A stretch of DNA of 64,000 bases from Psammoneis japonica (Eukaryota), in NCBI GenBank assembly GCA_008632985.1, contig QPGO01000196.1, forward strand, positions 62,001-126,000, written 5' to 3'. Below the pieces are notes generated by a model. It was not told the origin of the DNA. It worked only from the letters and a program-made list of their open reading frames with translations, and did no database searches. Position 1 is the stretch's first letter; every line of letters begins with the position of its first letter. Shown here in pieces: positions 1 through 53,791 of the stretch. A program made the position numbers and the translations under genes.

Positions 1-2
1 CA

Positions 3-22378: not shown

Positions 22379-25300
22379 ATGCGTGCAACGTCTTGGGAGC
22401 GGGCCTGTGCGATGATGGAGGTGTGCCACGTGTGCCACTGTTTGTCGGACTTGAGAAGCGCGAAGGTAAGTGGGTCGCGTTTGATGCCTCGTTTAAAGTC
22501 ACGTACGGGATCACGTGGTTTGGGTGGCAACGAGCCAGGAGTGGGAGCAGATGGTGCTGTACCCATGGAGAGGGACGCCACATACTCTCAGGGCTAAGAC
22601 GATAGTTGGTGAACTCCTCTTGTGTGAACAATTGAGGGTCATTGCTAACATCCGCACCACTGCGCGCTTTTACCGTGTACAGGCTAATTAGCACAGCTAT
22701 CTGTGCTTTGTAACCACATAGCAAGGGCATTTGATTGGTGGGCATTTGATTGGTGCCGTCGTTGTACACAAGGGCATCCAATTGCGTTGGAGTAAAAGTG
22801 AAAAGGTCCTGATACGAATCAGTTCCATCAATGTTTAGGGCTGAGCGCAATGGACTGTCTGTGGCTTGATTCAGAACAGTGCCTAGAATGTGCTCGAGGC
22901 CATTGATTTGTTGTTGCCTGGTGAGAACCATGTTGCAGCTAGGTGGATGTCGGAACTAGCTAGAGTCCGAGTGTGGGCTTGAAATGACTTGAAACTTGAC
23001 TTGAATCTTGACTTGATGTCTTGCACTATCTCAAGAGTCAGAAACCGCCGGGCTATGCTATCCCATTCGTAGTTAAGTGCTAAGCTTCCTATCCGGTCCG
23101 TAGAGTTGTGCCGGCACATCCGAACCCGCAGCTGGTGATGCTTTGGGTTGCTTGAGAGCGGAGCAATGGGTTAAAAGCCCCTGCTGACAAGCTAACCAGA
23201 GGTGGACAAGACCTCTGAACCGTTCTTATTTTATGTCGGTTGGATAACCCAATCAGGCCGGCCAAATTTGGCACTGTGGAGGGATGAACAAACGTGGGAA
23301 ATGCACCCTCGCCCCAACGCAGGCTGTGATCACGAATTGCTTCCTCTCACAGTTGTCCTCGTGGACCCTGGAGGACTGTAGAAGACCAGCAATCCAGTGC
23401 AGATACGAGGCGGTAGACTTGGCGTGCGTAGAGCAGAGCCAGAGTCAGGGATTTATGTTGTGTGCGCGTGAACGCGTGCCGATGTATTGGCAGGATCCGC
23501 TGCAAGGAATCTGGAATCTCGGATGTCTGAGAATTCAGGAATTCCTGGCCAAACAAATATCCGTTGAACAAACACATCCAATGATGGGAGGCATCGGACA
23601 AATCCAAACGTGTAGATTTAATCCAGCATTCAGCAGTGAAGAAGGTAGACACACACTTCCACCGCCAACGGTGCGCATCGTCGAAAATTTCTCGATGACG
23701 ATGATGAACGCTCAATGGACAATAAAGAGCAAGACTGTTAATCTAACAGAAAATGAAGATGACTGGGTGGAAGAAAACAATAACTCCTTACTGCTGTCTA
23801 AATGGCAGATGAGTCTCCGTGCAGAGACCGTTACAGGAGCCGAAAGACTGGTGTCGTGATATCGGTGCTACTGTTGTTATTCTTGTGAGCCGAGTGGCTC
23901 GAAAGCAAACTACATCGCGCGACGCCCGCGGAACTAGGAGCACACATAATTATGTGTGATAAACTAAAATCTTGTTCAAATCCTGTCAAAATAATTGTTG
24001 GCAGTTGCTGGTGCCTCTAATGCCGTCGTCGCTTGATGCCACCCTTGGCTTTGCTCTCTTCTACCGATGCCACGTGGGCAGGTAGGGCCTAGACCTGTTC
24101 GTTCTTGAATGTAAACAAACTATTCTAGAGCTATGACAGCAGTGCTTGCACTCCTTCGATTAGTTTAGTGGTGTTGTTTAGGGTGTGCATTCAGAGACGA
24201 AACTTGCACCCCTTCCTGTCTACCTGCTACTCAAACCAAACATACATCTATTGGTGGAGAAGGCGCAAGTAGCCAATTCGTTCTTAAAGCGAGCAGACGG
24301 CAGTGTAGATAAGCCTCTGGTAGCACAACAATGAGCCATCATCATTGGCGATTCAAAAGTATGATGTCAATTGATTGACAGAAAGCTGCAATCCTTAAAA
24401 TCGTCTTGTCCTAAATTGCACCCATTAAAAGTGCTCCCACAATGCCCTTGCTGATGCTCGGTGGCAAAGAATGACTTGGGTTTGCAAGATCATGACAAAC
24501 GTCAGTGTTTTTTGCCAAAGACTTGGATCCGACAAAGTGATTGAGATTCTCGTGTCCAAACGGAGCTTCGGGAGTTTGCAATCCTTGAAACGTCTTGCAG
24601 GCTGGTACAGAACCGGGATGCACGGGCTTTATTTTCGTCCTTGAGTTGCTTCAAGTAATTTATAAAGTCGGGAAAGGGGTTGGGCTTGACTGCCATGTTG
24701 GCATTCCGTTTCGTACAAATTCACCCCGTCAGCAACAATGTTGTTCTCTTCCGTCAAACTCGAAACCCCGTTGACACTGCCTCACGGCTTCTTCAATTGT
24801 CTACCCCCATTTTCGACTCTCTCATCATTGATGTTGAATTTTGTATTGCAGTGCTCTGCCCACAGGTCTACTGGCATCCATTGATTCTGAACGCGAGAAT
24901 CCAAGAACAGTCGATGCATGTGTTTTGATGCAAACGATTTTCGGACATCAGACATGATGGGTTTTTGCACTTCGGCCCTCAGGGAGCTTCACAGGTGGGT
25001 TGGTAAGGTGGGTATAGGTCATAGTGCTAAAAGCCATGGATTTTCAAGAAGCTGTGAGCATCATCGTCGAGGGACCGGGCACGTGATAATTCTTGTGCTT
25101 TTTGTTTTCATTACAGCAGTGGTTGCAACGTCACCTAGTGGCGCGGGGGGAGGGACAGACGCGGGGCAATGCGGAACTGAGTCATGTAGGTAGGAAAAGG
25201 GATGGATTTCGAGTTGGGGTTTGATGTTTGCGATTGTAGTTTGGTGGAGTAGCGGGTTAGTTGGTCAGCGAGCGACTTGGCAATCACGAGGCTCAGGCTC

Positions 25301-25924
25301 TGTAGACCCCATTGTGATGGTGTTGAGGAGTGGTGGGTTGGGCCAAAGCATTCAGCAGAGATGGTTTGCCAAGTGGCGGTGGCGGCAGGGAGGATGGCAG
25401 ACGGGGATTGTTGGCCTAGTAATTCGATGCGGTGTGGCACCGACACGTAAGATGTCAACATCGTCAATCGATCGTATTTGCAATTTTCGACATCCGATCA
25501 ACTCTGTGTGATCATTCTGTCCTTTGTACGTATCCACGACTGTGGTACGATTGACATGTAAATTATATATAATTATGAATATGCACACAACAGTTGCACA
25601 CTGCATTCGCCTCCCTAATTGCACATTAGAGTTATTCGTTAAGTGGAATAATTTGACGGACATTGACATTGTCAATGATGTCTCCACGTTAACTGAATGA
25701 GATAGGCACATGTACTTTATGACCGAGTGTGCCCTCTCTGATGTGTGTATATTAACTAACGTATTAGATATTCAGGAAGCCGTTAGAAGTCAGTTCCGAT
25801 CAGCGATTGCGCTGATCGGGTCTCTTCTCGGTTCTCCCACAACTTTTTATCAAGTCATCTCAAGCTAGATCTTGCACTGTAATTACAGTCGTTGTTATAG
25901 CTTGTTCATTGCATTATCAACTTT

Positions 25925-26128
25925 ATGACAACGCGAGGAGTGTTATCGAGAAGAGAGAAAATTTATTTACGAGCTCGTGCAGAAAATTTCATTCGAAGTC
26001 AATCAGAATCGCAGCGTGGTTGCACTCGTGAAATTGGCGATTCGGAGCAGCGTTTGTTCGAACTCGAATCTCGTATTGCCACTCTTGAATTTGTCATTGT
26101 TTGGTTGTTGATTGTTCTCGTTGTGTGA
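25925..26128 (+). CDS. Small upstream ORF (ORF0) of element C: basic + coiled-coil, hydrophobic C-terminus
   Basis: 67 aa, similar to ORF 37763..37978 at the same position in element D (LSRREKIYLRARA vs LTKREKRELRARA). Confidence 0.65.
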   Translation: MTTRGVLSRREKIYLRARAENFIRSQSESQRGCTREIGDSEQRLFELESRIATLEFVIVWLLIVLVV

Positions 26129-26201
26129 TTCAATTGGGAACGTTTTATTTCGTTTATCTTGTGGATTGTTGATTATTTGATCGCTGAAATTGTTCATCGC
26201 C

Positions 26202-27389
26202 ATGCATCAAGAAGCCTTGGAGAAAGCGTGTATTGAACATAAAACCAAATTCGTGGATTCTGAGCTACAGGAAGTGAAGCTCACTCAAACCTTCGATGAT
26301 GGCACTAAAATTTCAAAAATGTGTCCTATTTTCACAGGAGAGCATGGAATTGAATCATTGTTGCACGTGGAGGATAGGTTCCGGAAGGTGGCAAGACAGC
26401 TGGATTATGACACCGGAACGGAATTATTTGATGCTTTCGAGGATTGTCTCCAGGGAACAGCGGAGGCAAAATGGCAGAACATTACCGCGGGTATCCCACA
26501 GAATCAACGGATGGTAGCTCGATTTGATCAGGCTATCTCAGCCTGTTATCTACACTGTGTGAAACCAACAGCTCGCGACACGATGAAGATGCATTTGCCC
26601 ACTTGCAAAAAGCCTTACTCAGCGGAATCTGAAACTCATGTTGATCGTATGGAGACGTTGTTTTGTCACACTAACCGTTTGCCTGGTACCGTTCCTGCAC
26701 TTACAGAGCAGGAGCAGAAAAATATCATCTTTTATACCTTCCCTTTGACCTGGCAGCAGTCCTACATTCGTGCGGGCAAGAACCTTGTTACGGATTCTAT
26801 GGTGGATATCCAAGCCTACATGAGTAATGAGAAAGTGTTTGCCGATGGTCAAGATAACAAGAAACGCAAGTCCAGTAATGGCAATGGAGGGAACTCCAGT
26901 AACAAAAAGGGTAACCGTGACAAGAAGGATGGCAAGGGCCAACCGAAGGCAGGTGACCCGTGTCCGGTCCCGTGGCACCATGGAAGGCATGCGTGGGGCC
27001 AATGTTGTGATAATCCAAACAACCCTAAATTTCGTGGGCCTCAGAACCGTGGCGGTTGAGGAGGAGGCCGTGGCGGTGGACGCTTTGGTGGTCGTGGTAA
27101 CCAGAACCAAGGAGGTCATGGCACCTGTTATAACAACAACAATGGAAATCAAAATAACAATGGCAACCAAGGTGGTGGTCAACATTATTATAATGAAAAC
27201 AACAACCGTGGAGGCCAAGGACAGGCCGACGGATGTGCTGCTCAAGCAGACAATATGAATGATAACAACCAGGCTCGAGAAGCTCCTCGTGGTGATGTGC
27301 ACCATTTCGATATGATCGGACGAGGCCCTCCACGATGCGGAGGTGTGGTGAGGTTTCAGCCGGACGGGCAGTTTCCTCGGCAGTTCTGA
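26202..27389 (+). pseudogene. gag: Gag of element C, with a premature TGA at 27057
   Basis: Homologous to D gag (EVKLTQ, HGIE.LL.VEDRFRK, RMETL). It has a CPVPWHHGRHAWGQC knuckle. The RGG/Asn-rich tail continues in frame past the stop. Confidence 0.85.
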
Positions 27390-29799
27390 GAAGAAGGAGC
27401 TGAATGCTCCGGAGCTGAATGCTCCCAATTGCCTATGAGAGAAGTGTTTGTTGAAGAAAATGATTGTGTTTTACCTGAATGAAATGATGAATGTTTTGCT
27501 TTTGATTGTTTTGAAAACCCTGACGAATTGTTACCTGTTGAATTTGAAAATACTGCAGAAAATTACATGAATGAAGAGGGGGATGTGTTTGATCAAGATG
27601 CATTTGAACACAACATTCCTCTCCCCAAAATGAGTTCGCAAGTCTCGCGTACCGCATTGGTTCCATCTACACTACTTGTTGCAAAATCAATACAACGGCA
27701 TGAGTCGAATCGTGTGATGCGTGTTTTGTTCGATTCGGGTGGTTCTCACACTATGATTTCGTCTCAAGTTTTACCTCGAGGAGCCGCACCATCCATTGAC
27801 GAACATGGAGTCCGAGCTTTTCAAACCATGGCAGGTCCTTTCCAATCGGGTCGTTGGGTGGCCTTGAGTGACATCGTGTTACCGGAATTCGACAAAACTA
27901 GGAGGATTGACGGCTGTGTGGCTCACGCATTTGATGCTCCGTGTGCGTATGACATCATTTTGGGTTGAGATTTCTTGGACAAGATTGGTCTCAACCTGAA
28001 CTATGACACGAGGACACTACATTGGCTAGACCGTGTGATCCCAATGAAGGAACCTCGTCATTGGTCCAAATCCTGCAATTGGCATGTGGCTTTAGATCGA
28101 ATGGATGAATTTGATGAAGATTGTGAAGACGAGTTGGACTATGGATACGATGATGGATGTGATAACTACATGCTCGACGCCAAGTATGAAGCAACGGATC
28201 CAGCGGAAGTGGTTCGGAACTTAGATCATCTCATGGAAGAGCAAAAGAAGAAGCTGTTAGCGGTGTTGGAAAAACATTCGACCTTGTTTGACGGAACTTT
28301 GGGGCACTATCCTCATGAAAAGGTACACCTCGAAGTGGATGAAAATGCTGTTCCATGTCACTCAAAACCATTTCCTGTTGCTCGAGTCAATGAAGAAGCG
28401 TTCAAAAAGGAACTAAAGCATTTGGTGAATCTCGGCGTACTTCGACCATGTGGACCTATGGAATGGGCAGCCGGCACCTTCATTGCTCCAAAGAAGGACG
28501 GCCGAGTACGATGGGCACCCGATTTTCGGGAGCTCAACAAGGTCCTTAAGCGAAAAGCACATCCTCTACCAGTTATTCAAGATGTGCTACAAAGGAGAGC
28601 GGGATACAAGTTCTTCACGAAATTGGATCTCACTGTGTTCTACTGCAATTTGGAGCTGGACGATGAAAGCAAGGAGCTCGCTACGATTGCAACTCCGTAC
28701 GGGAAGTTCCAGCATTGTCGTATGGCTGTGGGATTAAAACCAGCTCCGGATGTTGCTCAGTCCATCATTGAAAAGATTTTGCATGGTTTGGATGTTGAAA
28801 CTTACATTGATGACATTGGCGCATTTGACACTGACTTTGATTGCCATCTCTCTCGTCTTGACAAGGTGCTACATCGTCTCGAGGAGAATGGTTTGAAAGT
28901 TAACCCGTTGAAATGCGAGTGGTGTGTCCAAGAAACCGATTTTCTAGGGCATTGGCTTACTCCAACTGGCATTAAACCGTGGAAAAAGAAGGTCGAGGCG
29001 ATCCTACGAATGCAACCTCCACGGGATGCTACTCAGCTCCGGTCGTTTCTCGGTGCAGTGACCTGTTGTCGTAATGTGTGGCCTCGCCGTTCTCACCTGC
29101 TTGCACCTCTGACTGAATTGACAGGCAAGAGTCAGTTCCAATGGACAGAATCATGTCAGAAAGCGTTCAAGGAGATGAAGGCGGTAATCGCGGCGGAAGC
29201 GTTGATGGCCTGCCCTAACCATAACCTGCCATTCCATGTCTACACTGATGCATCAGACTACCAGATGGGCGCCGCTATCATTCAAGATGGTAAACCTGTA
29301 TGGATCCGCCTTCGGAGGGGAAGAGCCTTGGGCCAAGTGGCAAACGCAAAGGAAAAATTGTTCATTTTGAAAAGTTGGATTCCAAGGAACTGTGCACTAT
29401 GCTCGAAGAACGAGTGTAAACGAAAGTAGAACGAAGTTCAAAAAGTGAAAATTATGAGAATTATTTCTACGCAATCATTTTGGGTTTCTCCGAACGGGTT
29501 CTCAATAGCCTAAACCTTTTGTACTGCTCCTGCAGACAAAAGGCCTTTCGGAGAATATGATCGTGACAACAGATTGTCCGGATACGATTGACATTGACAC
29601 ATAAGATGTCAACATCATCGTACGATCGCATTTGCGATTCTCGACATCCGATCACTTCTGCGTGACCGATCTGTACTTCGTACGAACCCACGATTGACGT
29701 ACGATTGAAGTGTACTTTTATTTAAAATATATAGATATACACATGTAATACGTACATAACAACGCATGTTGCATTCGCCTCCCTAATTGCACATTAGAG

Positions 29800-32700
29800 T
29801 CAGTCGTTAAACGGCATTATCCGACGAATATTGACAGTGTCAATAACGTCACCGCGTTTGATCTGCACTGTGCCATTAGTATGTACCGTTGTTATTTCGT
29901 ACGGTCCAACATAGGGCTGTTCTAATTTTTGCGAGTCTTTCTCGAGTAGTATCTTTTCTCCTACTCTGTACGTGTAAGGAGTACGTCGAGCATTCTCTCG
30001 AGCGTTATTTTTATTTATGATTTCTTATTTTCGCTGCTGGATTAATTTCCAGTCTGCGACATGTTGGACGTTAAATGTCATGTCTCTATTGAAGACTAGT
30101 TGTCCTGGTGTAGCTTGCATAGTGGTATGATACGTAGAACGTACCGCAAATGCTACCGCTGATAGTATTCCAGCGAAAGGATCCTCAGCATCTAGAGGTG
30201 TATGTTGCAAATCAAATGTATGGAGCATGTTCCCCAGCACTTGATGTACGCGTTCAATAATTGCGTTTGCTTGTGGATTTCGTGTAGTTATAGGCTTGAC
30301 TTTAATGCCATAATCATCTTGCACCATTTCTCTAAATTGGTGTCCGATGAACTCACTTCCACAGTCATATGTAATTAACGATGGCCAAGGATATCTACTT
30401 AACCATGTTCGTTCTAGCAGTCCAGCTACAGTTATGGACTCCTTATTTGGGATTTCCACGACTTCAAACCATCCGGTTGCTGGATCGATCATTGTTAAAC
30501 ATTTCAGGACTAGGGGTTCTTTCTTTCCCTTACAACGTATTTTGTATGGCCCAATAAGGTCCACACATAGTCGTTCCCATGGTACGGATTCTGCGCACTT
30601 AGGAGGTAAATGTCCACATTTCTTGTGTTTCTTTTTGAATTTTTGGCACGTCTCACATCTCAACACGTATTTTCGTATGTCTTCACGTAAGGTGGACCAC
30701 CACAGGTGTTGTGAGATTGTTTCTTCTGTTCGATTTATGCCAGGGTGAAGAAGGTACGTATGACACCAATCTATCACTGCCTTTTGTAACGTCCTCGGGA
30801 TGACAATTTTATCCTTATGACATATGAGCAACCGGTCTCGCTCGCCTCCACGAAAAGTCTTCGTATGAAACGTCTTATTTGACAATTGGGAGAGAATGTC
30901 TTTGTCCCGTTTTTGTTCATAATCAAGAACTTTGTAATTTAACGGAAAGACATTGTCGTAGGATTTTGGCAGGACCTTTTCAGCTAGCTCTTCTGTGCTG
31001 AGGGTTTCCATAGGTTCTATTTTCTTCACAGTAAGTCGGCTAATCGCATCTGCGACAATATTTGCCTTGCCCTCAAGGTGTGTTATTTTGGGACTGTATT
31101 CTTCTATTATTAGACGCCAACGCATGACTCTGTCCGTTGTGAAATTTTTATGTGTGAGATTTTTGTGATCCGTGTATATATTTATCTGTTGGCCAAACAG
31201 CACATTACGGAACTCTTTTAACGTCTCCACTATGGACAATAGTTCTTTTTCCGTTGTAGTATAACGCGTCTGCGCTCCATTCAGCTTGCGGCTGTAGAAG
31301 GCAATTGGTCGGTTTTTCTGAGTAATAACCGCCCCCAATTGAGAATTACTAGCATCAGTATATATCTCAAAGGGCACATTAAAATTCGGGTATGATAACA
31401 GCATATCTTTGGAGATGATGCGCTTCATATTTTCGAAGGCTTTTTGTTCTGTTTCGGTCCATTGCCACTTTACTTGGGTAGAAGTGAGTTTGGCTAAAGG
31501 AGCTAAAACATGAGATCGTCGAGGCCACATGTCTCGATAGTAGTTGATCATGCCGATAAAGCGTCGCAATTCCTTGCGAGTTTTAGGAGTTGCGATCGCG
31601 TGAATCGCTTCTACTTTTTTTGGAATCGGACTGATGCCCTTACGGGTGACATGAAAGCCTAGATAGTCTACTTCGGGTTTAGCGAAAAAGGACTTCTCGG
31701 CGTTGACCTTCAATCCGGCTTGTTCTAGGCATAAGAACACCGTTTCAAGCTTCTTGAGGTGGTCTTGAAAATCACCTTTTGTAAGACACAATATATCATC
31801 AATGTAAGTTCTGACGAACTCCAGACCTGCCATGAGCTCACTCATGTGCTCTTGGAAAATATCTGGAGCTCCACAGATTCCCATCGGGAGTCTACAGTGC
31901 TCATATTTGCCCCAAGGCATGACGATCGTGCACAAGCGACGTGCATGCGGCGTCAATTCGACATGATAGTATCCCATGTTTAAATCTAGGGACGTTGCAT
32001 ACATGAAGCCTTCGAGCTTCTGTAACATATCCTGAATATTGGGCAGAGGAAACGGAGTACGAATTAACCTCTTATTTAGCTCACGAAAGTCAGATAAGAA
32101 CCGAACTCTACCATTTTTCTTGGGTTGAATAAAGGTTGGAGCCGCCCATTCAGAACAGTTTATTTTTCTTAAGACTTTCAACTTGCATAGTCTTTCAACC
32201 TCCTTACGAGCAGTCGCCTCCAAGGCTTGTGGTGCGGGAAATGGTTTGGCATGATACGGACTCACGCCCGATTTCAACTTCAAATCCACCGGTTTCCCGG
32301 TCCATTTGCCTAGAGAACCATTGAAAAGGTTTTCAAATCTTTTTAAGAGGAAGTTCAGCTGCTTCTGCTCTTCAGGAGTTAGATGAGTAGCTGCTGCAGT
32401 CACATTATTGAGGTTTGCAGAGTGACAGTCTGAGTCAAGGATCCGATTGACCCTGTCATTAAGACCAATCACTGCATGAGATTCCTCAATATGATCGGCA
32501 ATCAACTTAAAAACATCGGCATCGAAGAGTGCATCAACATTCTTCATAGGAGTAGTTGCATCTTCCCATTTAATCTCTTCATTCGAGAAGTCCAACATTG
32601 TCCCAAGACTTGACATTAAGTCGCGTCCCATGATCATGTCATAACGACTCAAAGAAGAAGGGGAGTTGTCAACATGTGCCGTTGTTTCAATCATCTTATG

Positions 32701-33000
32701 TTTGTCAAATTCGGGTAAGGAGAATTGGATCTTACATCGACTGTCAGTCGTAAAGAGCCCTCCTTTGGTTTCCCAGAGTTTGGTGGCGGATACTTTGGTT
32801 CTGAGTTTCCGCGTGAATTTGCGCAAAATTATGGTTGACGATGTTCCGCTATCGAGGAGAACGCGTAGAGGCTTATTTTTCGCTTTACCTAATGAAGCAT
32901 TCATATAGGCGACGACTGCTGGACTAGCATGAATTACTTTGGCCCTTTTTCTGGGCTTCCTAATATCCAGTAGAGCGTAAGACTCCTCTTGCGGTGCAAG
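29800..33000 (-). CDS. pol: Pol of element B (PR-RT-RH-IN), with one premature TAA at 30025
   Basis: LLDSGTS, LDLNMGYY, YIDDIL, YTDAS, HPG..CETCQ, VDLIGP and NPQANAIIER are present. The frame continues after the TAA to a TGA at 29800. Confidence 0.93.
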
Positions 33001-34155
33001 TCATTCCTCAGAATCACTGCGCGTCATTTTTTCAAACTGACAATTCTCCTCGTCAAGGGTGTCAGAATCATAATCTTTGCTCTTGTGCTTTTTATCATTG
33101 TTCGAGGAACTCGCTTTGAGCATTTTTTGAACTGCTTGGATCGCCATAGCATTCAACTCTTCTTTGCGAGCGGCGTTGTCGTTATCGCGACGAGACCACG
33201 TGCGCTTGCCATTTGAACGGCGCCGTTTTGGGTCGGGTTCATAGTTCCCACGGCGTTCTTTCGCAAGTCTTTTGATCGACCAGCACTTGTCCGTGTTGTG
33301 AGTGGATTTCTCGCATGAAATGCACCACTTCTCGGACTGAGATTTTTCGGTGCCATGTTGGTGACCATTTTTGGAACCACGTTGGGAACCACTCTTGGCT
33401 TTTGATGCAGCACCGCCACTGCCATCAGCCTTGGCATGAATGCCATCGAATATGTCTTCTGCGACCTCTAGGCGTTCCAAGAACTCAACCAACTCGTCAC
33501 AGGTATGTTTCAAAATTTCGAAACCCTGGACGGTCGACTGACGCTGCCACTTTCGAGGTGCAAGATTGAAGAGGATGTCCTTGAGCTCGTCGTCCTCGAT
33601 CTTCTGTTCCTTCCCAAAGGGAGGATAGAACTTGAGGTCTTCGTTGACTTCCTGGACCCAAGCAGCAATTTCGCGCACTTTCATGGACTCCGGCTTCTTG
33701 AGATCACGACGCAAATAACGTTTCTGCACCGAAAGTGCGTTCTTGGGAAACACATGCCTCGTGAGATGTTGTAGGCATTTCTCGAAGCTTCCTTCCGCAG
33801 ATTCGTCTTCAAGGTTCGCTGCCGCATTCTCGAAAGCACGTAGAGCGTCTCCTTGGAGTAACACACGCATGAGACGAAACTTATCAGATTGCTTCCTGAC
33901 ATTCTGGCCCACTAGAAGTTGATCGTAGCTCTTGAGAAATTCGATGAACTTGGGGACACCTTGTTTCTTGTAGCACTCGACATTGATGGTGTAGGTACGG
34001 CTATCCTTCTTCTCGGGATGAAAACGTTGCTCCATCTTGAGGCACTGGCTCGGTTTGAGGCTCTTCGGCTCGGAGTTCGATTCCAGCGGTTGAGGAACGA
34101 TTTTCTCCTGCCTTAACGAAGTTTTAGCGTTGGTTACATGAGGTGAAAGCTTCAT
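33001..34155 (-). CDS. gag: Gag of element B
   Basis: Open ORF from ATG at 34155 with LLQGDAL..F, QKRYLRR and a CxxC-H-C knuckle (CISCEKSTHNTDKC). Confidence 0.88.
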   Translation of the reverse strand: MKLSPHVTNAKTSLRQEKIVPQPLESNSEPKSLKPSQCLKMEQRFHPEKKDSRTYTINVECYKKQGVPKFIEFLKSYDQLLVGQNVRKQSDKFRLMRVLLQGDALRAFENAAANLEDESAEGSFEKCLQHLTRHVFPKNALSVQKRYLRRDLKKPESMKVREIAAWVQEVNEDLKFYPPFGKEQKIEDDELKDILFNLAPRKWQRQSTVQGFEILKHTCDELVEFLERLEVAEDIFDGIHAKADGSGGAASKAKSGSQRGSKNGHQHGTEKSQSEKWCISCEKSTHNTDKCWSIKRLAKERRGNYEPDPKRRRSNGKRTWSRRDNDNAARKEELNAMAIQAVQKMLKASSSNNDKKHKSKDYDSDTLDEENCQFEKMTRSDSEE

Positions 34156-35335
34156 CTTGAACTTATTACCTTCTGTGGTGTGTATACACAATGCACTATG
34201 CTCGAAGAACGAGTGTAAACGAAAGTAGAACGAAGTTCAAAAAGTGAAAATTATGAGAATTATTTCTACGCAATCATTTTGGGTTTCTCCGAACGGGTTC
34301 TCAATAGCCTAAACCTTTTGTACTGCTCCTGCAGACAAAAGGCCTTTCGGAGAATATGATCGTGACAACAGATTGTCCGGATACGATTGATATTGACACA
34401 TAAGATGTCAACATCATCGTACGATCGCATTTGCGATTCTCGACATCCGATCACTTCTGCGTGACGGATCTGTACTTCGTACGAACCCACGATTGACGTA
34501 CGATTGAAATATACTTTTATTTAATGTGTAGATATACACACATAATACATGCATAACAACGCACATTGCAACTGAGCAAAGCCGAGGAAGAGGAAGATTT
34601 GGAGTTGGGCGCTTGCAGGTTCAAGTGTTGCCGTGCTCCGGTTGATCCTTCTGATGAGTCTCACGCCGCCTTTTCCTCTCTGCTTGATGAGCCTGAATTG
34701 TTTGAATGCTTTTTGAATTACCCGACGCTGGACGAAATGCCGAATCCTACTGAGATGCTAAGGATACAACAGTTCCAGTTCGAAGACCTCCAACTGAATC
34801 AGCAAAGACAACAAAATCAGCAGCAGTTCGTGGTCAAGATTGTGAATCATCGCCCCCTGATTTGTTGTCGTTTGCATCTGAATGATCCGCCTGGAGCCTG
34901 GAAAATTTGCATTCCTGCTGCGTTGTTGCCGGACACCATTGCATGGTGCCATCACGCATTGGGCCATTGTGGAGTCGTGCGATTGTATGAAAGTATTCGG
35001 ACTCATGTGCATCATCCTGCATTGCATCGACGTTGTAACGAATTTGTTTGCGATGCGTGTCAACGATTTAAACAACTGGGTCCTGGATGTGGAGAGTTAC
35101 CTCAACGTCAAGCACCTTTGGCTCCGTGGACGGAAGTAGCGGTTGATCTCATTGGACCGTGGAAAACACCGATTCAAGACCAAGAGATTGAATTCAGCAC
35201 TCTCACTTGCATTGATGCTGTCACTGGATTGACTGAACTCGTGCGCATTGACAACAAAACTTCTCAGCATGTGACTAACAAGTTTCGCAACCTTTGGTTA
35301 GCTCGTTATCCCAGACCGAATCGATGCATCCATGA

Positions 35336-35727
35336 GACGAGTTCCAGGTCTAGGTGGGACCTCGTATACTGCTGAACTGTGACATCGATAGTTTTTTGAA
35401 TCACGTCGTATGTCGCGCACATAGATTTCTACGTGATCTTTTCGATATTTTGTGTCATTTTACGGTACACTTATTGAGCGATCCGTCCAACAACTTTTGA
35501 CATTTTTTGTTACAGCGCGATTCTATAATGTCTTAAGAATCGCGTAGGGCAGGTGCATTTGCAAAAACGTCGAGTGGCAAGAGGCATAATTGTACCACAA
35601 ACTTGGCTGTTTATTTGATGTTGAAGATAAATATATCCATTAATTAAATTCTCGTACTACGGAGCTCGCACGTAGAATTCTACGGGCCCAATGTCACACG
35701 GAGTCCCACCTAGGACTGGAACCCATC
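35336..35727. mobile_element. MITE family M, copy 2
   Basis: Near-identical to 21989-22378. TSD ATGA. It splits the integrase of element C. Confidence 0.92.
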
Positions 35728-36156
35728 ATGACAATGGTGGAGAATTCATTGGTTGGGAGTTCCAAATGCTACTAAATCAAGCGGGCATTGCTGATGCGCC
35801 GACGATGTCTCGAAATCCTACAGCCAACTCCATTTGTGAACGAATGCACCAGATGGTAGCTGACATCTTACGTACTGTGGTTGTCACTAACCCACCTTTA
35901 AATGTTCAACAGGCCAAGCAGATTGTGGACGATGCCCTTGCTACAGCCTCTTATGCTTTACGATGCTCCCACTCAAGGTCTGTGGGTGTTTCAAGTGGAG
36001 CTCTAGTGTTTCAACATGATATGATTTTGGACTTACCAGTTATCTCTGACCTTGCTACGATGCAAGCCAACCGACAAGCATTGATCGATGAGAATCTACG
36101 ACGACAGAATGCAAAGCGCCATTCCCACGATCATCTAGTTGGTCAAGATGTATTAA

Positions 36157-36602
36157 CACCCGCATCCACGGATTCACCAGGCAACACTCGGGTATGGCAA
36201 AAAGTGTGCATTTGGTCAAAATCGATTATTGAGTGCAAATGGTGGCATCTTTGGGGTCCCTTTAGTGAGCCGAACACGCACATTTCTCATCTGACCATCA
36301 CAGGTCGTCTTACGGGGTGTCAAAATGTCGTGCTTTAATGTGTGAATTTTCAATTTTATATAACCTTGGTGGCTGGATACATTATATAACAATTAATTTT
36401 CAAGACGCGTCAAAGCACGACGTTTTGACACCCCCCATAAGACGGACCCATGATGGTCAAATGAGAAATGTGCGTGTTCGGCTCACTAAAGGGACCCTAA
36501 AGACACCACCATTTGCACTCAATGATCAATTTTGACCAAATGCACACTTTTTGCCATACCCGACTTTTGCCAATTTTGCCTGGTGAATCCTTGGATGCGG
36601 TG
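36157..36602. mobile_element. TTAA-flanked foldback element with long TIRs (piggyBac-like target site)
   Basis: TTAA|CACCCGCATCCACGGATTCACCAGGCAA...TTGCCTGGTGAATCCTTGGATGCGGTG|TTAA. The inverted arms are ~180 bp. Confidence 0.88.
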
Positions 36603-37762
36603 TTAATCAAGTCGGTGGATCCTTCAAAGTTGGAAGAACGAGCCTGTGGTCCGTTTCGAATTGTACAAGTCCATGTCAACGGGACTGTTTCGGTGCTGCG
36701 AGCACCGCACGTTATTGAGCGAATTAACATTCGCCGCATGGTGCCGTATCGGAGTTGAGGGTTTTTTCCCAACGTCTGGGTTCCCTTCTCCGTGCGCATT
36801 GGGTTTGAATTTTAATCAAGTGGTTCCAATGGTGCGCGTGTTCCTTGCACCATGGAGGGGAAGAGTGAATGAGATAGGCACATGTACTTTATGACCGAGT
36901 GTGCCCTCTCTGATGTGTGCACATTAACTGACGTATTAGACATTTAGGAAGCCGTTAGAAGTCAGTTCCGATCAGCGATTGCACTGATCGGGTCTCTTCT
37001 CGGTTCTCCCACAACTTTTTATCAAGTCATCTCAAGCTAGATCTTGCATTAACTGTATTGTGCTATTAGCAATGACTGTTGTTGTTTTATAGGCCAGCAT
37101 AGGGCCGTTTCAATTTCCAAATGTCTTTCGAGAGTGTCATGGTTTGTCTCACGCTCTATGTGCATATATAACGCTCTATGTGTATGCATATATATAAATA
37201 TACTGTAGTATTGCGTCGAGCATTCTCTCTGACATTATTTTGTTCATGTGGACACAAGGACCAATTGTCCTGCTGTTCTTTCATGGTGTCGATTGTACAT
37301 AGCATTCTGCCCAGGAAGTCGCCGCAAAAGCGTGGAAAGTCTGTCGCGGATACTTTCCACTTTATTAATTATATCTATATACAAAAAAATATAACACAAT
37401 ATTAATTTGTTATGAATAACTTATATATTCCTTTTTATATTGCCCTTACAACCTAAGTAATTTTGGTTCGAAACCGTTGAGTGATAATGTTTATATAAAG
37501 TGATAAAGTGTTCATTAAGAAAGGGTCATTATGACCGTTTTTGATCAATGACTTTCCACGATAGAATTACTGCAATGTCTCGCACCTTATTTTTCTGATA
37601 CACAGTATTAATGAACCTATTAGATATAACGGAAGCCGTTGTAACGGGCTTCGCTGAAAGCGACCCTCGTTACCTCGGTCTTTCGCTCACAAATTTTGTT
37701 ATCACTGAAGTCTTTATCTCGTTAGACCTTGCACTGTAATTACAGTCGATTCAAAGAACTGG

Positions 37763-37978
37763 ATGGAGACTAGGAACAATACAAACAAATTGACTAAACG
37801 TGAGAAAAGAGAACTACGCGCAAGAGCAGCAGTTTGGGCTATTGAGCACCAGAAACAAGTACAACAACGTAAACGACACGAACAGAATTTGGCGAGCCGA
37901 GTGCATCATTTGGAGTCAAAGGTAGAGTCCCTGGAGAGGACTATTGAACAATTGTATTCCCTTTTTCATGATGAGTGA
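37763..37978 (+). CDS. Small upstream ORF (ORF0) of element D: basic + coiled-coil
   Basis: 71 aa ATG-initiated ORF similar to C ORF0. Its end overlaps the gag start (ATGATGAGTGA). Confidence 0.65.
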   Translation: METRNNTNKLTKREKRELRARAAVWAIEHQKQVQQRKRHEQNLASRVHHLESKVESLERTIEQLYSLFHDE

Positions 37979-39188
37979 ATCGTTGAAGGAGCCTTGCATT
38001 AGCTATGAAGCTAAATTTGAGCATTCTGACTTGGAGGAAGTGAAATTGACCCAATCGCATGATGACGGTAGTACTCGTACAAAAAAGTGTCCGCGTTTTG
38101 ATGGTACTCATGGCATTGAAGCATTGTTATTCGTTGAGGATCGTTTTCGTAAAATTGCTGTGAAATTGGAGTACACTACTGGCGAGGAGTTGTTCGAAAA
38201 TTTCGAGGAAGTGCTTACGGATACTGCAGAGGACAAGTGGGCGAACTTGACCAATGCAATTGACGATGCCGATAAAACTGTCGAGCGTTTTGATCAGGAA
38301 ATCAATCGTTTTTACTTGTCTTATTGTGATAATGAAGCGCGTGATACGATGATTGAATATTTGTTAACTTTGAAGAAACCATTCAAATCTGAAGTACAGG
38401 CGCATGCAGATCGCATGGAAACCTTGATTCGGTGCTCCAACAAACTACCAGGAAATACTCCTCAAGTCAACGAAGCTCAGAAGAAAAAGATGATATTCGA
38501 TAGCTTTCCTCGTCCGTGGCGTGAGATGTATACTCGAGCAGGACGAGCGATAGCGAACGATACTCTCGCTGAGATCATTAGTTATGTGAACAACGAGAAA
38601 TCTTTTGCTGACAAGAGTAGCAACAAGAAGCAGGACAAGAAGAGGAAAAGCAATAGTGCTTCGTCTCAAGCTTCAAGACGCTCTCGTGGCAATAGTGGTA
38701 GAACGGATCCAGAATCTAGATGCCCGGTACATACGAATCACGACCACAAGTGGAAGGATTGTATTTTGAATCCAGAAAGCCAAAACTGTCGACCAAGGTC
38801 CGACCGTGGCGGTCGTAGCGGAGGTCGTGGTGGAGGCCGAGGAAACTACCAAGGTAGAGGACCCCAAGGTCGAGGCGGTCGTGGCAACTTCCAAGGTCGA
38901 GGACGTGGTAATTATGGTAATCAAGGAGGACATGGAGGCCGAGGTTACGGCAATTATAACAACTCCCAGAATTCTCAAGGGAATGGATCCTATTACCAAA
39001 ATCAAAACGGCACCCAAGCCAACAGTGATACCCAAGGCTATGGAAATCCGGCTGGAGCAGCTCCTCCTGGTGGTTGGCAAATGGAGTCGCACCATTTTGA
39101 TCAAGGAGGGCCTCGTGAGATGCGAGGTGGAAATGGATACGATCAGAACGGTCGTACCCATCAAGGCCAACGAAGTTGGCGTAATTGA
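37968..39188 (+). CDS. gag: Gag of element D
   Basis: Open ORF with a CPVHTNHDHKWKDC knuckle and an RGG/NQGY-rich tail. Homologous to C gag. Confidence 0.88.
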   Translation: MMSESLKEPCISYEAKFEHSDLEEVKLTQSHDDGSTRTKKCPRFDGTHGIEALLFVEDRFRKIAVKLEYTTGEELFENFEEVLTDTAEDKWANLTNAIDDADKTVERFDQEINRFYLSYCDNEARDTMIEYLLTLKKPFKSEVQAHADRMETLIRCSNKLPGNTPQVNEAQKKKMIFDSFPRPWREMYTRAGRAIANDTLAEIISYVNNEKSFADKSSNKKQDKKRKSNSASSQASRRSRGNSGRTDPESRCPVHTNHDHKWKDCILNPESQNCRPRSDRGGRSGGRGGGRGNYQGRGPQGRGGRGNFQGRGRGNYGNQGGHGGRGYGNYNNSQNSQGNGSYYQNQNGTQANSDTQGYGNPAGAAPPGGWQMESHHFDQGGPREMRGGNGYDQNGRTHQGQRSWRN

Positions 39189-42100
39189 CAAGGGACGGAA
39201 GTGCCCAAGTCAGAGCGTGTCGCTCAATCTTTTTATGTTTCGTGTGATCGTGAAGAAAATATATGTTTTAATGTTGATGACAATGTGGGAGACCTGATGG
39301 AATCTTATACTATGAATGAAGAAAAATTGGGCGGCGTTTTGGAGTACGCTGTACCAACCCCTAAAACTACGACTCCTAAACCATTGAATGTGGTGCCAAC
39401 GACGTTGATGGCGGCGCGTGCCATTCAAAATCAAGAGAGTAAGCGAGTGTTACGAGTGCTATTGGATTCAGGAGGTACTAACACTCTTGTTCATTCTCGA
39501 GTTTTGCCGAAGGGAGCGAATCCAACCATGAACGATGAAGGACGGTTGAGCTTTCAGACGGTAGCCGGACGATGTGAATCCTCCCGATACGTTATTATGA
39601 AAGACTTGACATTGCCAGAATTTGACAAGTCAAAACAAGTCGATAGTATTGCGGCTCAAGTTTTTGATGCCCCATGCAAGTATGATTTAATTTTGGGACA
39701 AGACTTTTTGTCGAAAGCCGGAATCGTGCTTGATTTTCGATTTGGAATAATAAAGTGGTTGGAAACGTCGATCCCAATGAAGCAATCCAATCATTGGAAC
39801 TCAGTTCAGAATTGGTTGGATACACTGGAAGACGACGGAGAGGACGAAGACGATGAGGAAGCCTTCGGACAATCTTTTATGATGGACGCCAAATACGAAA
39901 AAGTATCATCCGCGAAAGTGGCGCAAGCTCAAACTCACTTAACTCAAGAACAACGTGATGAGCTACAAGCAGTGCTTGAAAAGCATGAAACCCTCTTTGA
40001 TGGAACGCTTGGTAAATATCCGCATGAGACTGTTCACTTGGAAGTTGATCCTAACGCTGTTCCCTTCCATTCTAAGGCTTATGAGGTATCCAAGAGGGAT
40101 GAAGCCGTTTTTAAGAAAGAACTACAGCATTTATGTAATATTGGCGTACTGGAACCAGTGGGACCAACTGAATGGGCAGCCGGAACTTTTGTAACTCCCA
40201 AAAAGGATGGACGAGTTCGATGGGTATCCAATTTTCGAGAGTTGAACAAGGTACTCAAACGAAAGGTCTATCCTCTACCGATCATTCAAGACGTTATTCA
40301 CCGACGCTCAGGATACAAGTACTTGACCAAGTTGGACCTCACTATGTTTTATTATCATATCGAGCTTGACGAAGAATCCAAGGATTTGTGTGCTATTGTT
40401 ACTCCGTTTGGAAAATTTCGATATTGTCGATTGGCCATGGGTTTGAAAACCTCTCCCGATATTGCTCAAGCCATCATTGAAAAAGTGGTAAAAGGAATCG
40501 ATGTTGAAACTTACATCGATGATATTGCTCAATTTGATGATTCGTTTGATGCTCACATACGTCGACTCGATGAGCTGTTATCCAGACTAGAAGAGAACAA
40601 TCTGAAAATTAACCCACTCAAGTGTGAATGGTGTGTCCAAGAGACGGATTTTTTAGGCCATTGGCTCACGCCTACAGGAGTCCGACCGTGGAAGAAGAAA
40701 GTGGAAGCGGTGCTACGAATGCAACCACCTAAAACTATGACACAACTACGATCGTTTATCGGTGCAGTAACTTATTATCGCAACATGTGGCCTCGTCGCT
40801 CACACGTGCTCGCTCCACTCACGAAGTTGACAGGCAAGAGCAAGTTGGAATGGACCCCTGAATGTCAACGAGCCTTTGAAGATATGAAAACTTTGATGCT
40901 GGACGACACCCTTTGGGTCTACCCGAATCATAACAAGCCATTCCATATTTATACTGACTCTTCGGACTATCAGATGGGAGCCGTAATTATGCAAGACGGG
41001 AAACCAGTAGCTTGCTGGTCCCGGAAACTCAGCGCAGCACAACAGAACTACTCTACGATTGAAAAAGAATTATTGGCGGTGGTAATGTGTTTCAAAGAAT
41101 TTCGAAGCATGTTATTTGGAGCTGACTGTACTGTTTTTACGGATCATAAAAATCTCACCTTTCGTACGCTCAATTCTCAACGAGTTCTTAGGTGGCGACT
41201 CTTCTTGGAAGATTTTGCCCCAACTTTCGAATACGTTGATGGCAAAGATAATCTTTTGGCGGATTGTTTTTCAAGATTGCCGCATATGGACCCTCCTACG
41301 GAAGGGAAGTGTGCTCCTAACAAGGGCAAGCTAATTGATTTTAAGACGATCAACCCTGCTATGCTACCGCATGAAGAAGAACTGGACGACCAAAACAGTG
41401 TGTCTCATTTTTCCTATCGTCGTAAAGAACCATCTCCATTTTATTCTTCTGTCGTGGACGACCCCGAATTGTGTGAATCATTTTTGAACTATCCTTCTCT
41501 CGAGGAAATGCAAAACCCTACAACTGTGCAACGAATTCAAGAGTACCAATTCGTCGACGTGGAGCTGAACAATGTGCGACAACAATATCCAGAACGCTTC
41601 GTTGTGGAACATGTGAATCAGCGTCCTGTAATTTGTTATTGTGCTCGACCGAATGATCCTCCGACTGCGTGGAAAATTTGTATTCCAACAGCGTTGCTGC
41701 ATGATATCATACGATGGCATCATAGGATTTTGGGACATGCAGGAGTGCACCGAATGCATTCCACTATTGGCGCACATTTCTGTCATCCTGCCCTTCGTCA
41801 ATCCTGTGAGAGATTTCATTGTGCTGATTGTCAACGTTTGAAAACTTTAGGCCCTGGACATGGGGACCTACCTGAACGGGAAGCGCCTTTATTACCATGG
41901 ACGGAAGTTGCGGTTGACCTCATCGGTCCCTGGAAAATTGAAATTCAAAACCATGAAATTGAATTCAACGCTTTGACTTGTATTGATGCCGTTTCGAATG
42001 TGACTGAACTTGTTCGTATCGACAACAAAACCTCGTCTCACATTGCTCAACAATTTGAAAATTGTTGGTTGTCTCGTTATCCTCTTCCTAACCGGTGTAT

Positions 42101-42683
42101 CCATGACAATGGTGGAGAATTCATTGGAGAGGACTTTCAATTGTTATTGCAACGAGCAGGAGTGGAAGACGCTCCGACTATGTCGCGAAATCCACAAGCC
42201 AATGCGGCATGCGAGCGTATGCATCAAACTGTTGGAAATGTCTTACGCACTTTGCTTCATGTTTATCCTCCACAGAATGTTGAGCAGGCTAATCAACTAG
42301 TGGACAATGCATTGGCAACCGCCATGCATGCAATGCGATGTGCGGTTTCTCGTGCTCTCAAGATATCACCCGGTGCTATGGTTTTTCAACGTGACATGAT
42401 TCTTGACTTACCGGTCCTAGCCGATCTTGCTACCATTCAAGAACACCGACAAGCGATTGTTAATGCGAATCTCCGTCGAGCCAACGCTAAACGCCGATCC
42501 TACGATTTTCAAGTTGGCGGACAAGTTCTACTCAAGGCTATCGACCCAACCAAGCTCGAGCCACGAGCTCACGGTCCATATCCTATCGTTCAAGTACACG
42601 CTAACGGTACACTTACGATCCAACGTACACCTCATGTGACAGAACGATTGAACACACGTCGCGTCGTACCGTATCATACCTGA
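39189..42683 (+). CDS. pol: Pol of element D (PR-RT-RH-IN), fully open and in frame after the gag TGA
   Basis: LLDSGG, YIDDI, YTDSSDYQMG, FTDHKNL, HAG..CADCQ, VDLIGP, HDNGGEF and NPQANAACER are present. Confidence 0.95.
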   Translation, partial: QGTEVPKSERVAQSFYVSCDREENICFNVDDNVGDLMESYTMNEEKLGGVLEYAVPTPKTTTPKPLNVVPTTLMAARAIQNQESKRVLRVLLDSGGTNTLVHSRVLPKGANPTMNDEGRLSFQTVAGRCESSRYVIMKDLTLPEFDKSKQVDSIAAQVFDAPCKYDLILGQDFLSKAGIVLDFRFGIIKWLETSIPMKQSNHWNSVQNWLDTLEDDGEDEDDEEAFGQSFMMDAKYEKVSSAKVAQAQTHLTQEQRDELQAVLEKHETLFDGTLGKYPHETVHLEVDPNAVPFHSKAYEVSKRDEAVFKKELQHLCNIGVLEPVGPTEWAAGTFVTPKKDGRVRWVSNFRELNKVLKRKVYPLPIIQDVIHRRSGYKYLTKLDLTMFYYHIELDEESKDLCAIVTPFGKFRYCRLAMGLKTSPDIAQAIIEKVVKGIDVETYIDDIAQFDDSFDAHIRRLDELLSRLEENNLKINPLKCEWCVQETDFLGHWLTPTGVRPWKKKVEAVLRMQPPKTMTQLRSFIGAVTYYRNMWPRRSHVLAPLTKLTGKSKLEWTPECQRAFEDMKTLMLDDTLWVYPNHNKPFHIYTDSSDYQMGAVIMQDGKPVACWSRKLSAAQQNYSTIEKELLAVVMCFKEFRSMLFGADCTVFTDHKNLTFRTLNSQRVLRWRLFLEDFAPTFEYVDGKDNLLADCFSRLPHMDPPTEGKCAPNKGKLIDFKTINPAMLPHEEELDDQNSVSHFSYRRKEPSPFYSSVVDDPELCESFLNYPSLEEMQNPTTVQRIQEYQFVDVELNNVRQQYPERFVVEHVNQRPVICYCARPNDPPTAWKICIPTALLHDIIRWHHRILGHAGVHRMHSTIGAHFCHPALRQSCERFHCADCQRLKTLGPGHGDLPEREAPLLPWTEVAVDLIGPWKIEIQNHEIEFNALTCIDAVSNVTELVRIDNKTSSHIAQQFENCWLSRYPLPNRCIHDNGGEFIGEDFQLLLQRAGVEDAPTMSRNPQANAACERMHQTVGNVLRTLLHVYPPQNVEQANQLVDNALATAMHAMRCAVSRALKISPGAMVFQRDMILDLPVLADLATIQEHRQAIVNANLRRANAKRRSYDFQVGGQVLLKAIDPTKLEPRAHGPYPIVQVHANGTLTIQRTPHVTERLNTRRVVPYHT

Positions 42684-43310
42684 GGTTAAGGGTTTTCTCC
42701 CCAACATTTGGGTTTCCCTTCTATCCTCATCCATTGAAATTTAAATTTTTTGAGTCCCGCATGATTCTCGACACTCGAATCATGGAAGGGAAGAGTGCAG
42801 TGTCTCGCACCTTATTTTTCTGATATATAGTATTAATGAACCTATTAGATATAACGGAAGCCGTTGTAATGGGCTTCGCTGAAAGCGACCCTCGTTACCT
42901 CGGTCTTTCGCTCACAAATTTTGTTATCACTGAAGTCTTTATCTCGTTAGACCTTGCAATTACATCGTGGAATACATTCCACGATGCTGTCGTGGAAAGT
43001 GAAGACTTTCCACGATACAATCGTGGAAAGTCATATGACTTTCCACGATGACTTTCCACCTTTCGAGGCTTATGTAAATGCCCGTAAAATAGGGTCATAT
43101 GACAAAATTTTGATCTCATCGCAACGCCTTGATGCCTACCTACCATACAAATCTTGCCATTTTCCAACGATTTTGGAACAACTCCCTCTCCAAAATCCAA
43201 GCCGTTACCTGCCTGCAAGGCCCAGTTCTTTCCCGCTTTACCGTTCGCCATGTACATGTACACCACTCCACTAGGCGATGTAGTGCATGAACTTCTCACA
43301 AGCGCATACT

Positions 43311-43706
43311 GACGCGTTCCAGCCCTAGGTGGGAGCTCGTAGCACTGACGTGTGACACAAATAATTTTTATCATCCGTCGTATGTTTCGCACGTACATTT
43401 CTACGTGTGATATTTAAAAAAAATTGTCCAGACTTGCTGTTTTGCGAAGCCCCAGACGTTTTACATGACGCATTTATAGAAACAATAATGCGCCAGTTAC
43501 ATTCTTCAATGTCTGAAGAATGTAACTGGCTAAGTAAAAATCGATGTACTTCAATCATGTGCGAGTTTTTGCGTTCGCAAAATTGCCTCATTTTCTGTTG
43601 GCGAACATTGACATTCTAATTACCGTATAATTTTACTACGGAGCTCGCACGTAGAATTCTACGGGCCCAATGTCACACGGATTCCCACCTACGTCTGGAA
43701 CGCGTC
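43311..43706. mobile_element. MITE family M, copy 3
   Basis: TIR GACGCGTTCCAG..TAGGTGGGA. TSD TACT/TGCT. The empty site is seen in the duplicated segment at ~54982. Confidence 0.9.
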
Positions 43707-43801
43707 TGCTGTATAGCTAGATCGTAGCTAACCCACTGCTGTAGACATTACGTCACCACTAACAAATATCCTAAATCTTGTTATTCCCTCACTAAAGCTG
43801 A

Positions 43802-46052: not shown

Positions 46053-46086
46053 CTTTCCAGAAACTACCTAATTAGTAGCTGCCACC

Positions 46087-53738: not shown

Positions 53739-53791
53739 CCTCTTACATGACAACCCATGATAGGAAGGGGGGTGTTCCCTAACCGAACCCT

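Follow-up and report, generated by a model that had tools for sequence, protein, structure and literature searches.

Results

Three Ty3/gypsy elements within a heap of nested repeats

The 64-kb stretch of Psammoneis japonica DNA analysed here (contig QPGO01000196.1 of GenBank assembly GCA_008632985.1, positions 62,001 to 126,000 of the forward strand; hereafter referred to as the window, in whose own numbering all coordinates are given) has a GC content of 45% and is a heap of nested repeats. An earlier note, made from the letters alone, had described in these repeats a pervasive replacement of TpA by CpA or TpG, apparently the reverse of repeat-induced point mutation (RIP), and had assigned it to positions 25694–42958. 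This range comprises three long terminal repeat (LTR) retrotransposons of the Ty3/gypsy type, C, B and D, with B nested inside C. As described below, TpA is lost in a context-specific and strand-symmetric manner, after insertion, in four families of transposable elements (TEs) and in one unclassified repeat of the window.

Element C (25694–37048, plus strand) is split by B. Its LTRs (5′, 25694–25876; 3′, 36866–37048; both 183 bp, plus strand) are 96.7% identical, have TG..CA ends and are flanked by the 5-bp target-site duplication TTAAC. The internal region before B (25877–29392, plus strand) contains a gag-like open reading frame (ORF) and the start of the protease/reverse transcriptase (RT)/RNase H region, with Pfam matches to RVT_1 and RT_RNaseH_2 at 27969–29429; the region after B (34571–36865, plus strand) retains remains of RNase H and integrase, with a match to Integrase_H2C2 at 34557–35375. 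The observed-to-expected (O/E) ratios of TpA in these two regions are 0.48 and 0.53, respectively. C is also interrupted by a foreign piece of about 400 bp (35332–35730), which is 95.7% like 21985–22381. In the 3′ part of C, a 456-bp segment (36152–36607) forms a palindrome, with an 81% match to its own reverse complement.

Element B (29393–34570, minus strand) belongs to the same family as the copies A1, A2 and A4 described below. Its LTRs of about 380 bp (29393–29773 and 34192–34570) are 96.3% identical and its target-site duplication is the 4-bp ACTG; Pfam places the element that the earlier note labelled B in gypsy, not copia. Element D (37571–42958, plus strand), the least decayed copy, has 163-bp LTRs (37571–37733 and 42796–42958) that are 97.5% identical, a 5-bp target-site duplication (ATTAC) and a pol ORF of 1164 aa with RT, RNase H and integrase domains in Pfam. 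All three elements thus share the Ty3/gypsy features of TG..CA LTR ends, a target-site duplication and the pol order RT-RNase H-integrase.

Peptide motifs and differences between young repeat pairs

The earlier note had drawn its evidence from peptide motifs with His or Cys in place of conserved Tyr and Val in place of Met. All 15 motifs that it quoted are present in the window: at 40263–40931 in D, at 28554–29222 in C, at 30604–31905 (minus strand) in B and at 11134–12492 (minus strand) in a copia element, although the last of these lie outside the range 25694–42958 to which the pattern had been assigned. The quoted codon changes, TAT to CAT, TAT to TGC, TAT TAT to TGT TGT, TAC to TGC and ATG to GTG, could all be seen. 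Two details needed correction. Where aatATG had been said to become aatGTG, the change from ATG to GTG is there, but D has AAC as the codon in front of it and only C has AAT; and of the three B examples, KCGHLP and DWCH exist as motifs but fall in a poorly alignable stretch, where they are not traceable to Tyr. The Tyr examples alone prove nothing in any case, because a Tyr codon hit by a nonsynonymous transition must become His or Cys, and rates by context were therefore needed as a test.

As the earlier note had observed, paired LTRs differ mostly by exchanges of TA with CA or TG and by CpG transitions. The LTRs of C show six differences in 183 bp, five of them between TA and CA or TG and one at CpG, and those of D show four in 163 bp (two between TA and CA, one at CpG and one other). 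We compared 12 pairs of LTRs and other repeats that are 91–99% alike, counting transitions with an unchanged context. These numbered 67 at YpA (CpA versus TpA; Y, pyrimidine), 59 at YpG (CpG versus TpG), 9 at YpT and 7 at YpC, alongside 61 transversions and 31 transitions with a changed neighbour. With the gappy A2 LTR pair dropped, the remaining 11 pairs (6445 clean-context sites) had 60 transitions at YpA, 55 at YpG and 11 elsewhere (4 at YpC and 7 at YpT), and 28 transversions. If the YpA differences are taken as TpA losses, 11.0% of the TpA sites differ in these 11 pairs, as compared with 8.4% of the CpG sites and 0.5–0.9% in the YpC and YpT contexts.

Noncoding DNA is hit too, in the LTRs and in an unclassified 3.3-kb direct repeat. 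The two copies of the latter (43707–46998 and 54982–58298, both plus strand; 96.5% identical) differ by 26 transitions at YpA, 34 at YpG, 2 at YpC and 3 at YpT. Because paired LTRs differ, the changes arise after integration. Polarising the 39 LTR-pair differences by other LTR copies left 19 ambiguous, where the other copies vary, and one without an outgroup; the remainder (4 TpA to CpA, 3 CpG to TpG, 2 CpA to TpA, 7 other transitions, some of which are TpA changes with the neighbour also altered, and 4 transversions) were too few for use.

TpA is lost, not gained

The direction of the changes was assessed by parsimony among three family A copies, A1 (4129–8859, plus strand; LTRs 98.6% identical, target-site duplication CAAC), A2 (15568–21752, plus strand) and A4 (48740–53382, minus strand; LTRs 98.6% identical, target-site duplication ATTG), using private changes with invariant neighbours. 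A to G changes occurred at 61 of 248 sites after T (TpA; 0.246), compared with 89 of 1294 after the other 5′ neighbours pooled (0.062 after A, 0.083 after C and 0.066 after G), whereas C to T changes occurred at 41 of 259 sites before G (0.158) and 40 of 374 before A (0.107). Under the stricter rule that B, as the outgroup, must also agree with the majority, TpA was lost at 35 of 211 sites (0.166) and A changed to G in the other contexts at 34 of 1201 (0.028–0.029); the corresponding rates were 0.120 for CpG and 0.045 for CpA to TpA. The sequences themselves illustrate how the copies diverge. An ancestral AATATG has turned into AACATG in one of the B LTRs and into AATGTG in its partner; a pair of neighbouring Tyr codons is TAC TAT in A1, CAC TGT in B, TGC TGT in A2, TGC TAT in A4 and CAC TAT in A5; and TA, CA and TG all occur at 49 dinucleotide columns of the family A alignment.

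As an assessment independent of the DNA alignment, we used conserved columns in outgroup proteins, namely 120 polyproteins for the C/D family (46–65% identical to D) and 120 for the copia element (10741–15174, minus strand). We took columns in which at least 80% of the outgroups share the residue, inferred the single-nucleotide step and used all possible nonsynonymous transitions as the denominator. Columns that need more than one step or have several one-step routes were left out (23 in copia, in addition to 59 conserved columns changed by an assignable one-step change; the total for C/D was not counted). In C, TpA was lost at 13 of 75 sites, compared with 3 of 254 for other A:T to G:C changes, 5 of 80 for CpG decay and 1 of 103 for the change of CpA or TpG to TpA. 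The counts in the same order were 7/88, 0/279, 3/96 and 0/105 for D, 13/80, 3/496, 24/162 and 1/189 for copia, and 33/243, 6/1029, 32/338 and 2/397 for the three pooled. The pooled loss of TpA exceeded both the other A:T to G:C changes (odds ratio 27, p = 3e-19) and the gain of TpA (odds ratio 31, p = 8e-13). The change of TpA to TpG or CpA is some 15–27 times as frequent per site as other A:T to G:C transitions.

With 33 losses of TpA and 2 gains at protein-conserved columns, the direction is loss of TpA, not RIP. The central proposal of the earlier note, a context-specific A:T to G:C process at TpA that runs beside CpG decay and differs from both RIP and methyl-cytosine decay, thus stands in its polarity, its context and its strand symmetry. 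Its statement that C is more affected than D finds a trend only (TpA loss 13/75 versus 7/88, p = 0.09).

CpG decay, at 32 of 338 sites, likewise exceeded the other G:C to A:T changes in the protein-outgroup test (9/1080; 7/683 when listed apart from the CpG and CpA/TpG classes). It is a second process that accounts for none of the TpA losses, and both processes feed CpA and TpG. In these dead and dying copies, TpA and CpG disappear at similar speed.

Symmetry, context and footprint

The TpA changes are symmetric between the strands, with 45 of TA to TG and 44 of TA to CA; both Tyr to Cys and Tyr to His are common. They are unclustered (runs-test z of 0.54, -1.30 and 0.35) and have a mild preference for a pyrimidine on the 3′ side (TAY 44/456 versus TAR 20/372, p = 0.026; R, purine). 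Stop codons cannot arise by such changes, which destroy TAA and TAG, and mutated copies therefore retain long open frames. Fitting this erasure, long ORFs on both strands and in all frames are frequent in the TpA-poorest parts.

Over the whole window, the O/E ratio is 0.59 for TpA and 1.25 for CpA/TpG; in the older-looking parts, that of TpA is 0.44–0.53 and that of CpA or TpG reaches up to 1.5. Across 1-kb windows, TpA and CpA/TpG are correlated at -0.57. CACACA/TGTGTG runs occur in the U3 of A1, where microsatellite slippage is possible.

Variants in public-run contigs

To these comparisons we added contigs of the public run X1 that match D at a likeness of at least 85%; X1 may be the very sample from which the window was assembled and is not counted as independent support. 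The summed word depth of D's family in X1 is 550–4100 across the element, compared with about 65 for kilobase-long, single-copy-like contigs, which indicates a high copy number. The contigs differ from D at 291 places (99 A to G, 68 T to C, 40 G to A, 27 C to T and 57 transversions), and 167 of these have A or T in D but G or C in the other family copies; D has thus accumulated fewer mutations than the bulk of its family. Of 40 places that were itemised, 30 are A to G or T to C, and 24 of these 30 fall on a TpA of D, against an expectation of about 18%. The same class of variant is thus present in contigs built from the reads of X1, with the caveat on its origin just given. At many places within 37049–42795, every X1 contig has G or C where D has TpA; some TpA losses are therefore common to most copies of the family. 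No contigs of the public runs X2 and X3 were placed on D, and no RNA data set was listed as containing D.

Other repeats in the window

The copia element has an open 1478-aa ORF with Pfam RVT_2, a frame that remains open in spite of its changed columns, and the O/E ratio of TpA in its region is 0.46. It is probably truncated, because its relatives are about 1850–1900 aa long. Antisense to it lies a 398-aa ORF (13456–14649, plus strand). More fragments of the B/A family lie near 58809–64000. A tandem array at 60696–61758 (period about 180–200 bp, units about 73–79% alike) lies within an interruption of the A5 copy and is among the TpA-poorest and CpA/TpG-richest 1-kb windows. Upstream of A1, a degraded ORF (3266–3676, minus strand) matches Integrase_H2C2, which points to another gypsy remnant within 1–4100; the O/E ratios in this stretch are 0.53 for TpA and 1.47 for CpA.

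The ORFs of the 3.3-kb direct repeat belong to no credible Pfam family, having only two weak matches below the curated cut-offs. In an extended form of about 3.5–3.9 kb (43122–46998 and 54797–58298; 96.5% identical, 11.3 kb apart), this repeat brackets A4 together with short tandem and inverted pieces at 43311–43706, 47485–48703 and 53379–54796. Its two copies may represent the LTRs of a large non-autonomous element, or else have arisen by segmental duplication. The sole ambiguous base of the window is a single N at 54763. A Pfam search with 21 further ORFs of the window returned TE domains and three sub-threshold chance matches, and no host gene.

Discussion

A comparison with Bigelowiella natans

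A pattern of this type has been described in a 2026 preprint on mutation-accumulation lines of Bigelowiella natans (Mettrop et al., 10.64898/2026.01.13.699255), so that the term 'reverse-RIP', which the earlier note had offered for something new, has been overtaken. There, in integrated DNA of nucleocytoplasmic large DNA viruses (NCLDV) and virophages, two viral regions held 231 of 302 single-nucleotide mutations, and 230 of these 231 were A to G or T to C, on TpA (10.64898/2026.01.13.699255). Mutations arose there at about 6e-7 per site per generation, about 1000 times as often as elsewhere in the genome, and in only some of the lines; outside the two regions the genome was AT-biased (10.64898/2026.01.13.699255). 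In that study, reverse-transcriptase and DDE domains were over-represented among the TpA-poor coding sequences, and the authors proposed an ADAT2-like protein as a DNA adenine deaminase, citing work on ADAT2 of amphioxus and trypanosomes, and drew a comparison with RIP (10.64898/2026.01.13.699255).

The window shares with B. natans the near-restriction of A:T to G:C changes to TpA, the occurrence of TpG and CpA as strand mirror images and the footprint of low TpA with high CpA+TpG. A rho_TA of 0.43 or less is found in 12 of the 64 1-kb windows, and 3 of the 64 pass both cut-offs of the preprint. The two cases differ in that mutation in B. natans was measured directly, in single-copy viral insertions, whereas the window holds fixed differences in Ty3/gypsy elements, a copia element and an unclassified repeat. 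The words 'retrotransposon' and 'LTR' are absent from the text of the preprint (10.64898/2026.01.13.699255), and a full-text literature search found no other paper on hypermutation of transposons from TpA to CpA or TpG. Thus, the type of process is already known from the preprint, and what is new is that LTR retrotransposons and an unclassified repeat are its substrates. The window adds the dating of the changes to after insertion by means of LTR pairs, the preference for TAY over TAR, the strong CpG decay that accompanies them and the retention of ghost ORFs.

We consider it probable that the repeats of the window have undergone TpA hypermutation of the B. natans kind, that is, episodic, locally aimed and acting on integrated foreign DNA, likely by an ADAT2/TadA-like deaminase. 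Every repeat family in the window is marked by a hypermutability of TpA at the level of DNA, acting after insertion and on both strands alike, and a second and separate hypermutability, from CpG to TpG or CpA, runs alongside. In the most likely chemistry, the ADAT2/TadA-like enzyme would deaminate adenine in 5′-TA to hypoxanthine, which would be read as G at replication, so that TpA would become TpG or CpA. Adenine deamination is a plausible mechanism by analogy with the system described above; because TpA is self-complementary, a lesion on A and a lesion on T leave the same sequence. We infer both the identity of the enzyme and its singling out of silenced or foreign DNA. A role in genome defence is likewise plausible, and the aim at repeats putative.

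Several observations weigh against a locally aimed process. TpA is depleted at synonymous positions and codon boundaries, including those of copies whose frames are open: the ratio xTA/(xTA+xTG) in D is 0.36 and xAA/(xAA+xAG) is 0.70, and at its codon boundaries the fraction of T is 0.53 before A and 0.69 before other bases; in C, the values are 0.21–0.32 versus 0.68–0.73; and the codon boundaries of copia have T|A 28 times and C|A 251 times. Part of the loss was thus accrued in lineages under selection, over a long exposure, which is compatible with pressure on the whole genome, or with an aimed pressure under which active copies persisted through selection. Four of ten related metagenome loci (L001, L002, L004 and L008) have a rho_TpA of 0.41–0.46, with CpA+TpG at 1.26–1.37, whereas the other six have 0.65–0.80; L001, L002 and L008 carry ORFs of 504–1134 aa, and a similar TpA pressure may exist in the hosts of these four relatives. 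No strand-coherent clusters of changes, which a processive single-strand deaminase might leave, were found, nor was any host gene or evident single-copy DNA found in the 64-kb window that could serve as a comparison for the repeats. The ratio of TpA to CpG events is 20:8 in C and D and 13:24 in copia (p = 0.006, uncorrected for opportunities). Finally, the repeats carry CpG decay and, in the protein-outgroup test, 32 transversions, unlike the near-absence of other types of mutation in B. natans; being old insertions, they have had time to accrue background changes.

Alternative explanations

An alternative is that TpA is intrinsically hypermutable throughout the genome, owing to mistakes of polymerases or of repair or to spontaneous damage at this flexible dinucleotide step, without any aim at repeats, and that this shows up here simply because the window consists entirely of repeats. 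The depletion of synonymous TpA in copies that have open frames and were presumably active of late, as well as in the intact relatives from metagenomes, speaks for such a neighbour-dependent bias, as do the lack of clustering and of strand bias and the fact that all families and the unclassified repeat are alike affected. The rates estimated here, a loss of 0.136 and a gain of 0.005 per site, lead however to a neutral equilibrium of about 0.02 TpA per CpA+TpG, whereas the window has 0.29; its sequences are therefore far from equilibrium, under a pressure that must be of recent date or uneven. The variation of the TpA:CpG ratio between families also argues against a genome-wide bias, as does the fact that in B. 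natans, the one organism with direct measurements, the signature was confined to two regions whose rate was about 1000 times that of the background (10.64898/2026.01.13.699255). We regard this explanation as unlikely, if well short of negligible. Selection against TpA in place of mutation, through UpA-sensitive RNA decay, codon usage or the avoidance of stop codons, could account for the synonymous depletion in open frames. TpA is indeed under-represented in most genomes. Selection would not, however, destroy conserved Tyr, Met and Ile in dead copies, nor change LTRs and a repeat without any recognised gene, nor produce differences between the LTRs of single insertions, and it is very improbable as the cause.

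Still less credible is a mis-polarised decay of methyl-cytosine in the manner of RIP or in other non-CpG contexts (CpA to TpA), with the TA forms being derived. Unpolarised differences between CA and TA would look identical under such a process, but the TA codon is ancestral at the conserved columns described above, with 33 losses against 2 gains; parsimony with an outgroup gave 35 losses and 15 gains in spite of the commoner CpA sites; and sequences that are poor in TpA and rich in CpA/TpG at 45% GC are the opposite of what RIP leaves. Of all the explanations, we give this one the least credence. Another possibility is A-to-I editing of retrotransposon RNA, by an ADAR- or ADAT-like enzyme, before reverse transcription, with the changes fixed in new copies. 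It is consistent with the preference of ADAR for a 5′ U mentioned in the preprint (10.64898/2026.01.13.699255) and with the dominance of A to G between D and its family. Such editing should nevertheless favour one strand, whereas T to C (44) is as frequent on the sense strand as A to G (45), and Tyr to His occurs along with Tyr to Cys; moreover, TpA sites differ between the two LTRs of a single element, which were identical when it integrated, a noncoding unclassified repeat is affected and clusters are lacking. We see next to no chance that RNA editing is the source. As for an artefact of sequencing or assembly at a modified base in TpA, modified bases can give systematic miscalls on some platforms, and the possible identity of the X1 sample with that of the assembly leaves some room for it. 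Against it stand the copy-specific nature of the changes, each copy keeping most of its TpA and losing different ones, and the presence of the variants in the public-run contigs at depths of hundreds to thousands, with 221 of the 1613 pieces matching D at 99% or more. An artefact is thus a most improbable origin of the signature.

Relation to other mutators of repeats

The TpA process in the window is distinct from RIP and from editing by APOBEC and by ADAR, each of which is at odds with the data in a defining feature that was tested. Fungal RIP changes C to T at CpA, raises the TpA and AT content and makes stop codons. It resembles the process seen here in riddling repeats with dinucleotide-specific transitions at a load that varies by copy, but the direction in the window is reversed (CpA or TpG to TpA, 2/397), TpA falls, the GC content is 45% and no stops are made. 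APOBEC editing is reported to leave deaminase marks frozen in integrated LTR elements, in both LTR retrotransposons and retroviruses (PMC4866542). It acts on minus-strand cDNA before integration and yields strand-specific, clustered G to A changes, whereas those at TpA here are symmetric, unclustered and made after insertion. ADAR, which prefers U on the 5′ side of the edited A (Discussion of the preprint, 10.64898/2026.01.13.699255), shares the A to G change with a 5′ U/T preference; its editing is at the RNA level, clustered and one-stranded, in contrast to heritable DNA changes on both strands with a 3′ pyrimidine preference.

Implications

For annotators of such genomes, a long open frame within a repeat should not be taken as evidence of function. 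The dating of insertions by LTR divergence should mask TpA as well as CpG sites, and RIP indices read backwards. The LTR pairs provide a datable readout of changes made after insertion, and the TAY flank is a preference that any candidate enzyme must reproduce.

A broader proposal would be that TpA-directed editing of DNA is a general defence against transposons that mirrors RIP, acting on LTR retrotransposons and on integrated viruses, both in this genome and in those that harbour the metagenome relatives, by an ADAT2/3-like adenine deaminase that works on chromosomal DNA with a 5′-TAY preference, and leaving seemingly intact ghost ORFs, free of new stop codons but riddled with Tyr to His and Tyr to Cys changes; we put this forward tentatively, as possible but on balance doubtful. 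If the process is aimed, the window would supply further and independent evidence, the second of its kind, for a eukaryotic genome defence based on the mutation of adenine (or thymine) in DNA, drawn from fixed differences in retrotransposons and not from mutation-accumulation lines, and the targets of such a defence would widen from viral insertions to LTR retrotransposons.

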